The notes: generated by a model from the letters alone, not told the origin. A DNA stretch of 5,281 bases from a virus (IMGVR_UViG_2548876700_000007); one strand, 5' to 3'. Counted from the stretch's first letter, positions 3,417 through 3,507 are shown. A program made the numbers and translations.

Positions 3417-3507
3417 AAAACTCTCCTGTTATTTCGAACATGAGGGTAACAATAGTTACATTGTAATGTCAACCATAGTGACATTGCTTGGTAGTAACAT
3501 TGATTAC
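3417..3507. promoter_or_regulatory. divergent promoter/operator region between cro-like and cI-like genes (OR-like)
   Basis: Seen: inverted repeat GGTAAC-aata-GTTAC (3445-3459); inverted repeat ACATT-gt-AATGT (3458-3469); three direct repeats TAGTnACATTG at 3453, 3476 and 3492; perfect TTGACA on the - strand (rc of 3467-3472). No SD before the cI ATG at 3508, so a leaderless or weakly initiated cI message is possible (inference). Confidence 0.7.

Follow-up and report, generated by a model that had tools for sequence, protein, structure and literature searches.

The stretch of DNA analysed here (IMGVR_UViG_2548876700_000007; 5,281 nucleotides, hereafter the window) comes from a Rac/Qin-like lambdoid prophage of E. 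coli, of which it forms the immunity region, and E. coli strain 2013C-4465 matches it with 100% identity. The segment from 3150 to 4350 is covered over at least 80% in 702 of 5426 complete E. coli genomes. A cI-like repressor gene and a cro-like gene diverge from one intergenic region (Table 1), an arrangement found in 12 of 12 related loci, and the initial annotation of this region as a divergent cI/cro control region (OR) is borne out.

The repressor combines an HTH_3 domain (Pfam, 1.8e-16) with a Peptidase_S24 domain (1.1e-17). In comparisons with PDB structures it matches P22 C2 (1ADR/2R1J, E ~6e-12) and lambda cI (3BDN, E 7e-15), and the QAG, GDSM and KK cleavage motifs of the C-terminal domain are aligned. 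Its nearest phage relatives are the repressors of AH07, ZF40, mEp390 and Klebsiella phages (40–43% identity), with P22 C2 and phage 21 cI at ~35%. The Cro-like protein matches P22 Cro (PDB 1RZS, E 1.1e-12). Replication genes lie on the minus strand together with cro and the YdaT-family gene, and a DUF1391 gene follows cI beyond its terminator. A megablast of the window against the phage collection matched the conserved flanks but not the immunity cassette at the DNA level, and with the O157:H7 prophages, too, the cassette has only its flanks in common at that level. Searching genome contigs with cI returned just distant HTH matches in unrelated MAGs, none of them usable, and an Rfam search of the window gave no relevant match.

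Table 1. Features of the immunity region, in window coordinates.
Feature	Motif or product	Position	Strand	Remarks
YdaT-family gene		3204-2779	-	
YdaT box	TTGATTTTCATGAATCAT	3194-3211		Across cro stop and ydaT start; 1 mismatch, 0.07 expected
cro-like gene	71 aa, P22_Cro family	3201-3416	-	Pfam PF14549, E 2.8e-16; ORF list
cro Shine-Dalgarno	GGAGAG	complement of 3421-3426	-	
PR -10	TACCCT	3443-3448	-	Putative; in OR1 left arm and flank, read from sequence
OR1 core	GTAAC-AATA-GTTAC	3446-3459		18-bp P22-style frame 3444-3461; over PR spacer and -10
PR -35	TTGACA	3467-3472	-	Putative; 18-nt spacer to -10, read from sequence
OR2 core	TCAAC-CATA-GTGAC	3469-3482		Putative weak middle operator, 7/10 core matches; over PR -35
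OR3 core	GTAAC-ATTG-aTTAC	3494-3507		1 mismatch in window; holds candidate PRM -10
Candidate PRM -10	TAACAT	3495-3500	+	In OR3 left arm, 7 nt before A3508
cI-like repressor gene	224 aa	3508-4182	+	HTH_3 N-terminal and Peptidase_S24 C-terminal domains
Intrinsic terminator of cI	Hairpin and U-run	4189-4212	+	-15.2 kcal/mol, z -6.8
OL2 core	GTACC-TCTT-GTAAC	4225-4238		2 mismatches; upstream of PL -35
PL -35	TTGACT	4245-4250	+	Putative; read from sequence, kept in nearly all variants
OL1 core	GTAAC-TCTT-GTTAC	4257-4270		Exact; over PL spacer and -10
PL -10	TACCTT	4268-4273	+	Putative; extended TG at 4265-4266, 17-nt spacer

The palindrome GGTAAC-AATA-GTTAC reported in the initial annotation is exact and occupies 3445–3459. 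When matches to GTAAC-N4-GTTAC with at most one mismatch were counted, the window yielded three, starting at 3446, 3494 and 4257, against 0.09 expected, and all three fall in two regulatory gaps. The one at 4257 is the recurrence downstream of cI that had also been reported; it is exact and lies in the OL/PL region. The one at 3494–3507, GTAACATTGaTTAC, had escaped the earlier reading and adjoins the cI ATG. In 18-bp frames the sites of OR read GGGTAAC-AATA-GTTACAT (OR1), TGTCAAC-CATA-GTGACAT (OR2, 3467–3484) and TAGTAAC-ATTG-ATTACAT (OR3, 3492–3509), the OR1-to-OR2 distance being 23 bp and the OR2-to-OR3 distance 25 bp. On our reading, the motif is one imperfect palindrome, GTAAC-N4-GTTAC, with 5-bp cores around a 4-bp centre and ~18 bp in all when outer arm bases are included. 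We consider OR quite probably the right operator of a P22-type lambdoid immunity module, with three sites built on this one palindrome.

Near relatives were represented by 80 IMG/VR loci with cI 95–100% identical to that of the window, comprising ~25 OR and 38 OL haplotypes. Near-invariant stretches of OR among these loci are GGTAACAATAGTTACAT (OR1), ATGTCAACCATAG (which includes the minus-strand TTGACA), ACAT, CTTGGT and the OR3 block GTAACATTG(G/a)TTACATG, whereas positions 3438–3442, 3462–3465, 3479–3480, 3485–3486 and 3493 are hypervariable. Operator arms are conserved, while the OL1 spacer and the DNA between sites vary. OR1 is the same in 79 of the 80 loci, with a single G-to-A change in the remaining one. 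OR3 reads GTAACATTGATTAC in the window and carries a G-to-A allele there, as opposed to the commoner perfect core, GTAACATTGGTTAC, found in most relatives and most haplotypes.

More distant relatives comprised eight homologues with 47–88% cI identity (from E. coli, Salmonella, Arsenophonus, Hamiltonella, Yersinia and sequencing-run assemblies) and three isolated phages, ZF40, AH07 and Klebsiella ST101-KPC2phi6.3. All eight homologues have a divergent P22_Cro gene and a pair of GTAAC-N4-GTTAC cores with a separation of exactly 48 bp; the repressor ATG comes immediately after the second core, except in one locus with one extra base in between. The three phages likewise show palindromes 48 bp apart with the second adjoining the ATG, and a middle site at +23, CAAAC-N4-GTTAC, is clearly present in AH07 and the Klebsiella phage.

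The 10-position core was scored at every offset in an ungapped alignment of 13 non-redundant loci. Peaks stood at 0 (mean 9.62 of 10), +23 (6.62, minimum 5) and +48 (9.62), against ~2.4 typically elsewhere. OR1 keeps 9–10 of 10 core matches in all 13 loci, and OR3 is constant at +48 throughout. The only other raised values, 4.5–5.5, were shadows at ±9 from the peaks, as follows from the single-base difference between GTAAC and GTTAC. The peaks at 0, 23 and 48 indicate a tripartite OR whose middle site is weak. A further site at +32 (GTGAC-ATTG-CTTGG), considered by analogy with the OL spacing, was rejected, because homologues do not keep its second half and it scores no better than the ±9 shadows.

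The weakness of the middle site raises the alternative that OR holds only two operators, OR1 and OR3, acting as independent strong sites with one per promoter, and that OR2 is a by-product of the PR −35 hexamer joined to a chance half-site, leaving neither a cooperative pair nor PRM activation. OR2 indeed has 7 of 10 core matches in the window and 5–8 in relatives, and OL likewise has two sites, at a variable spacing (32–35 bp). Since the left half of OR2 (TCAAC) overlaps TTGACA and is also explained by it, and the right half changes even among close relatives (GTGAC, GCAAC, GTAAC), the reality of the site rests on its position and on family-wide conservation. On both counts the loci argue for a genuine operator: the +23 peak exceeds every non-shadow offset and never drops below 5 of 10 in the 13 loci; AH07, the Klebsiella phage and ZF40 keep AAC-N4-(G/T)TnAC despite a different −35 hexamer; two phages have an exact GTTAC right half; and OR2 of P22 sits at the same +23 offset. 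Poteete and Ptashne are said to have established the P22 site experimentally. A two-operator OR is therefore unlikely in our judgement, and we retain the three-site reading.

The same motif recurs beyond the cI terminator, where two OL sites were detected in the window. Across the 38 OL variants, conserved blocks GTACCTYTTGYAACAT (OL2), TTGACT and GGTAACTCTTGTTACCTT (OL1) are separated by variable DNA. The arms of OL1 are identical in 38 of 38, two variants differing at the first spacer base only. OL1 is present after the cI terminator in seven of the eight distant homologues and was not found in the Salmonella locus, and a second site with at most two mismatches lies 33–35 bp from it in four homologues and two phages. 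A different placement of OL2, 23 bp from OL1 (TGTAAC-ATCA-TGTTGA), was discarded: the conserved block GTACCTYTTGYAACAT lies 32 bp from OL1, and positions 4241–4244 are hypervariable. The geometry of OL1 relative to PL equals that of OR1 relative to PR, with the operator in matching register.

The initial annotation also described three direct repeats of TAGTnACATTG spaced 23 and 16 bp apart, and these are indeed present, as TAGTTACATTG at 3453, TAGTGACATTG at 3476 and TAGTAACATTG at 3492; all three are exact, and they are the only matches with at most one mismatch in the window (0.38 expected). From them it proposed two motif classes or an unconventional direct-repeat operator, with separate sites for CI and for Cro or a CII-like protein. 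On the three-site reading, however, the repeats dissolve into parts of the palindromes: repeats 1 and 2 each consist of the last two spacer bases and the right arm of OR1 and OR2, respectively, while repeat 3 combines the OR3 left arm with the OR3 spacer. GTWAC is nearly its own reverse complement, so that operator half-sites look direct as well as inverted, and the repeats resemble one another because of this near self-complementarity and because ACAT follows each. That ACAT is arm sequence in OR1 and OR2, and in OR3 it is part of the candidate PRM −10 TAACAT.

Conservation separates the two motifs clearly. In the motif search across related prophages, the palindrome was kept and TAGTnACATTG was lost, already among relatives with 96–99% identity. 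Besides the window, only two of the 80 near-identical loci, L004 and L005, carry the exact trio; the trio is no longer intact in L006 and L007, whose cI is 98–99% identical, or in the 96% group, and the 11-mer is absent from homologues at 47–88% cI identity, where GTnAC(A) half-sites alone survive. With 3462–3465 and 3485–3486 hypervariable, the TG of repeats 1 and 2 falls in unconstrained DNA, as does the centre of a second reported palindrome, ACATT-gt-AATGT, which is present at 3458–3469 and spans the inter-operator spacer 3462–3465. From this comparison, the identities beyond the half-sites (the TA..ATTG flanks) are lineage-specific and not maintained. A further palindrome in OR, AATGTCA-N7-TGACATT (3465–3485), was set aside as specific to the window and lost in the 96% variants.

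What speaks for TAGTnACATTG as a class of its own, bound by Cro, a CII-like protein or a higher-order cI oligomer, is the occurrence of three exact copies inside 50 bp where 0.38 would be expected across the whole window, the retention of the 9-mer TAGYnACAT among E. coli lineages with 95–100% identity, and the case of prophage CP-933P, whose footprinted region shows direct and inverted repeat patterns with the register left open (PMC8630535). Beside the poor conservation of the full 11-mer, this proposal has to contend with the differing palindrome registers of the repeats (right arm, right arm, and left arm plus spacer) and with the location of the CII-equivalent site. In CP-933P the footprinted YdaT box, TTGATT-N6-AATCAA, is the OM site (PMC9986795). 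The window has its own copy, at the position of that OM site, and the copy is conserved in five relatives; within the cI-cro gap the same box gave just a three-mismatch, chance-level match at 3500–3517. As the CII equivalent here is YdaT, with its box at the cro/ydaT junction, the proposal of a CII-like site in OR fails.

Separate CI and Cro sites are disfavoured by phage mEp390, which has the half-site GTAGG/CCTAC. There, the recognition helices of both proteins are changed (cI TKWE to TGWE, Cro VRW to SGW), and this co-variation with the palindrome arm argues that both proteins read one motif. We therefore give a second motif class very little credence and treat the repeats as arms of the one palindrome. 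P22 Cro is a weak dimer. There is perhaps a slim chance that the switch exploits arms readable in either orientation, and that Cro or higher-order cI oligomers might, beside the palindromic mode, bind register-shifted or direct-repeat combinations of them (offsets 9, 32 and 48); if true, this would superimpose a further level of occupancy states, much as the authors of the CP-933P work speculated for their switch.

A strict sigma-70 consensus scan of 3350–4500 returned no promoter, so the promoters were called by hand and by conservation. PR would have the layout TTGACA-N18-TGt-TACCCT, its extended −10 TG being the complement of 3450–3451, and PL the layout TTGACT-N17-TGt-TACCTT; both −10 elements match the consensus at 3 of 6 positions and carry the extended TG. 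The PR −35, read on the top strand as TGTCAA, is invariant in the 80 near-identical loci; nine of the 13 aligned loci retain it, and the other four read GCAAA. TACnnT of the −10 is kept in 13 of 13. One base outside the operator core is invariant as well, namely the A at offset −3, which corresponds to T at −7 of the hexamer. For PRM, the distance from TAAnnT to the ATG is 7 nt in all but one of the aligned loci (12 of 13) and 8 nt in P0009, and no −35 was recognisable. CTTGGT (3487–3492), invariant in E. coli lineages, was tried as the PRM −35 and dropped, being wrongly spaced and unconserved beyond E. coli. The operators lie at about −17, −41 and −65 relative to PR and at about −7.5, −32.5 and −55.5 relative to the proposed PRM start, positions that agree with those in P22.

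The third direct repeat was said to end 5 nt before the cI ATG with no Shine-Dalgarno sequence, and it does: it ends at 3502, and no GGAG-like sequence is present. The leaderless cI transcript suggested on that basis likewise gains support, from the placement of TAAnnT, the absent Shine-Dalgarno and a non-coding-like polymorphism pattern upstream of 3508. The most likely template for cI translation is a leaderless PRM mRNA with A3508 as its first base. There are precedents for this from 5' RACE, in the repressor mRNA of CP-933P (PMC8630535) and the cI mRNA of PY54 (PMC4488713), and lambda cI offers another experimental precedent.

The start codon itself is contested. Whereas the initial annotation placed the cI start at 3508, leaving a 91-bp gap, the RefSeq/PGAP model runs from 3466 to 4182 (238 aa), which would reduce the intergenic region to 49 bp and make OR3 and repeats 2 and 3 coding. 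The frame is open over this extension, and relatives with as little as 50% identity are annotated with a similar N-terminal peptide (MSTI.T...SNI.YM); neither ATG has a Shine-Dalgarno. Yet this conserved peptide is what translating the operators produces, GTnAC giving V-T and GTAACATTGRTTAC giving (S/G)NI(G/D)Y, and the 14 extra codons, being translated operators, yield a similar peptide in relatives as distant as Arsenophonus. Polymorphism points the same way. Eight of the 42 sites in 3466–3507 vary, distributed 1/5/2 over codon positions with a synonymous:nonsynonymous ratio of 2:6, in contrast to 12/8/35 and 37:19 in the gene body (3508–4182). Moreover, most distant homologues are 215–221 aa long and start at an MK... 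equivalent to 3508, and mEp390 has an in-frame stop seven codons upstream of the ATG. The longer gene model is accordingly very improbable, and the start at 3508 with a leaderless mRNA appears well supported by comparison. The comparison also flags a systematic start-codon mis-annotation, in which 238-aa models translate operators.

Of the known systems, P22 offers the closest layout. Its OR cores, TAAAG-AACA-CTTAA, TAAAG-GAAT-CTTTA and TTAAG-ATGA-CTTAA, start at 354, 377 and 402 (23 + 25 bp), with the c2 ATG at 418. Shared with the window are homologous proteins (the cI N-terminal domain and Cro, corresponding to P22 C2 and P22 Cro), 5-bp cores around a 4-bp centre, core starts at 0, +23 and +48, a third site adjoining the repressor ATG that leaves no space for a Shine-Dalgarno, and reuse of the operator motif at OL/PL downstream of the repressor gene. 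In the 18-bp P22 site, repressor contacts are confined to the outer arms, and the uncontacted central 4 bp modulate affinity through their A/T content (PMC4267663). The window differs in its half-site (GTAAC/GTTAC against TTAAG/CTTAA in P22), in its recognition helix ((T/S)RVSVTKWE against SNVAISQWE, in proteins with ~35% overall identity), in an ATG directly after the core rather than 2 nt later, in the downstream partner of cro (YdaT-family instead of c1) and in an OL with two detected sites. Common geometry and homologous proteins together suggest that OR of the window is the P22 scaffold with a different half-site.

Lambda is similar in having divergent PR and PRM that share three operators (about −17/−41/−65 relative to PR), an S24 autocleaving C-terminal repressor domain (the 3BDN match), a leaderless cI, as proposed for the window, and an OL downstream of cI. 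Its operators, however, are 17 bp long with 24/23 spacing, its Cro has an alpha+beta fold, its OR and OL are 2.4 kb apart, as opposed to ~0.8 kb in the window, and its OR2 is centred at −42 from PRM, compared with about −32.5 from the proposed PRM start of the window, which brings that promoter ~10 bp nearer to the operators. CP-933P of E. coli O157:H7 (PaaR2/YdaS/YdaT) shares the Rac/Qin-like context, a YdaT-family CII equivalent, a divergent-gene gap of similar size (97 bp, 91 bp in the window), the direct and inverted repeat patterns noted by its authors and a demonstrated leaderless repressor mRNA (PMC8630535), as well as a YdaT box at the end of the cro-like gene, of which the window has a one-mismatch copy (PMC9986795). 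Its Cro equivalent, in contrast, is YdaS, and its repressor gene leads a toxin-antitoxin operon.

The operator motif is shared by Pectobacterium phage ZF40, Pantoea phage AH07 and Klebsiella phage ST101-KPC2phi6.3, which carry GTAAC-N4-G(T/G)TAC at 0, 23 and 48 and at OL, a recognition helix SRV(S/T)(V/I)TKWE and the same gene order, but differ in cI (40–43% identity) and in a PR −35 of the form TTGCnn. mEp390 keeps the 0/23/48 scaffold, the third site adjoining the ATG and the same protein families, but with the operator GTAGG-N4-CCTAC, and would be a different immunity specificity.

Read together, these features describe, as far as sequence can tell, an ordinary lambdoid genetic switch that is a specificity variant of the P22 type. 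Dimers of the SOS-cleavable cI would fill OR1 and, cooperatively, OR2, along with OL1 and OL2, turning off PR and PL. OR3 would be occupied by excess cI, or first by Cro, turning off PRM. Cro, with its P22_Cro fold, would read the same sites as cI, cI itself would be made from the leaderless mRNA starting at A3508, and RecA-stimulated cleavage at the QAG site would relieve repression. Binding, cooperativity, order of occupancy, PRM activation and transcription starts are all inferred here. Repression of PR and activation followed by repression of PRM are common to all known lambdoid repressors (PMC5977221). Since the OR2 centre lies at about −32.5 from the proposed PRM start rather than at −42 as in lambda, PRM activation is an extrapolation from P22 geometry. 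How cI might spare a near-perfect OR3 relative to OR1 invites only guesses: the spacers (AATA and ATTG), the flanks, cooperativity or OR-OL looping. As a more modest reading, a near-perfect OR3 on the PRM −10/+1 could make for a strongly self-limiting, "hair-trigger" switch, which the G-to-A allele of the window may relax.

No new regulatory principle is revealed by the OR analysis. What it provides, by comparison alone, is an immunity type with a defined operator code (GTAAC-N4-GTTAC) and promoter layout. About 700 of 5426 complete E. coli genomes carry that type, and we found no study of it in the literature; queries on the motif and on the ZF40 operators returned nothing specific, nor did we find an operator study of ZF40, AH07 or ST101-KPC2phi6.3. 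The same motif extends to Salmonella, Yersinia, Arsenophonus and Hamiltonella and to Klebsiella, Pantoea and Pectobacterium phages. P22, the family of the window and mEp390 all retain the P22 OR scaffold, with sites at 0/23/48 and the third one on the repressor ATG, but have exchanged the half-site specificity, and the three form a natural series for studying how immunity specificities evolve.

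The annotated repressor start at 3466 (238 aa; RefSeq WP_000104592.1; clusters P0001, P0002, P0005, and P0006) appears to be wrong. Its 14 additional N-terminal codons relative to the favoured start at 3508 (MSTIVTLLGSNIDY; 3466–3507) are an in-frame reading of OR2 and OR3, two of the three predicted operators in the cI/cro gap. This apparent artefact is repeated across hundreds of database entries.

We compared operator alleles at OR3 (window 3503) and OR2 among the window, the near-identical prophages L004–L007, and loci L098 and L100. The OR3 arm occurs as two alleles, the majority GTTAC, which gives a perfect palindrome, versus ATTAC, shared by the window and homologues from Salmonella and Arsenophonus. 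The right arm of OR2 is variable (GTGAC, GCAAC, or GTAAC): the majority 96% lineage carries GCAAC both there (3478–3482) and in the arm of OL2, a predicted operator downstream of cI (4234–4238). The corresponding window arms read GTGAC (OR2) and GTAAC (OL2).

Phage mEp390 (L106) places GTAGG-N4-CCTAC half-sites, at ∼528–600 and 3′ of the cI stop, on the same 0/23/48 scaffold as the window. This half-site change comes with recognition-helix substitutions in both cI (K to G) and Cro (R to G), each directly preceding a conserved W, making mEp390 and window-type modules a natural pair for a specificity swap.

A match to the box of the CII-equivalent YdaT, probably the mark of a PRE-like control site, straddles the cro stop and ydaT start. 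It is kept in relatives L048, L101, L102, L105, and L107, which represent E. coli, Yersinia, and ZF40.

The 69-bp stretch at 4282–4350, directly 3′ of OL/PL, is 97–100% identical in 3650 of 5426 complete E. coli genomes, K-12 Rac being among the carriers. It is a mosaic joint, differing immunity cassettes being exchanged between conserved flanks. A second joint of the cassette lies near the ydaT start.

Sequence features of the window, with coordinates
Feature	Position	Strand	Remarks
Tandem 12-mer TATTCTCTGTAG	2256–2291		three copies
∼23-bp unit CATnGnGnCATTTTGACCnGATG	2295–2410		four copies
YdaT box TTGATTTTCATGAATCAT	3194–3211		one mismatch to footprinted CP-933P box TTGATT-N6-AATCAA
boxA TGCTCTTTAACAA	4677–4689	+	exact rrn/nut-type match; 0.01 expected
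ORF, 163 aa	4715–5206	−	coiled-coil-like N-terminal half; CxxC...CxxC motifs

Within the PL transcription unit, boxA is placed 3′ of the DUF1391 gene. No N-like ORF was seen within the window; relatives L100 and L104 have an N_peptide gene after OL. The 163-aa ORF, antisense inside the PL-side region, received no above-threshold Pfam assignment. Origin-like repeats (2256–2410) lie within the minus-strand replication gene (2059–2754).
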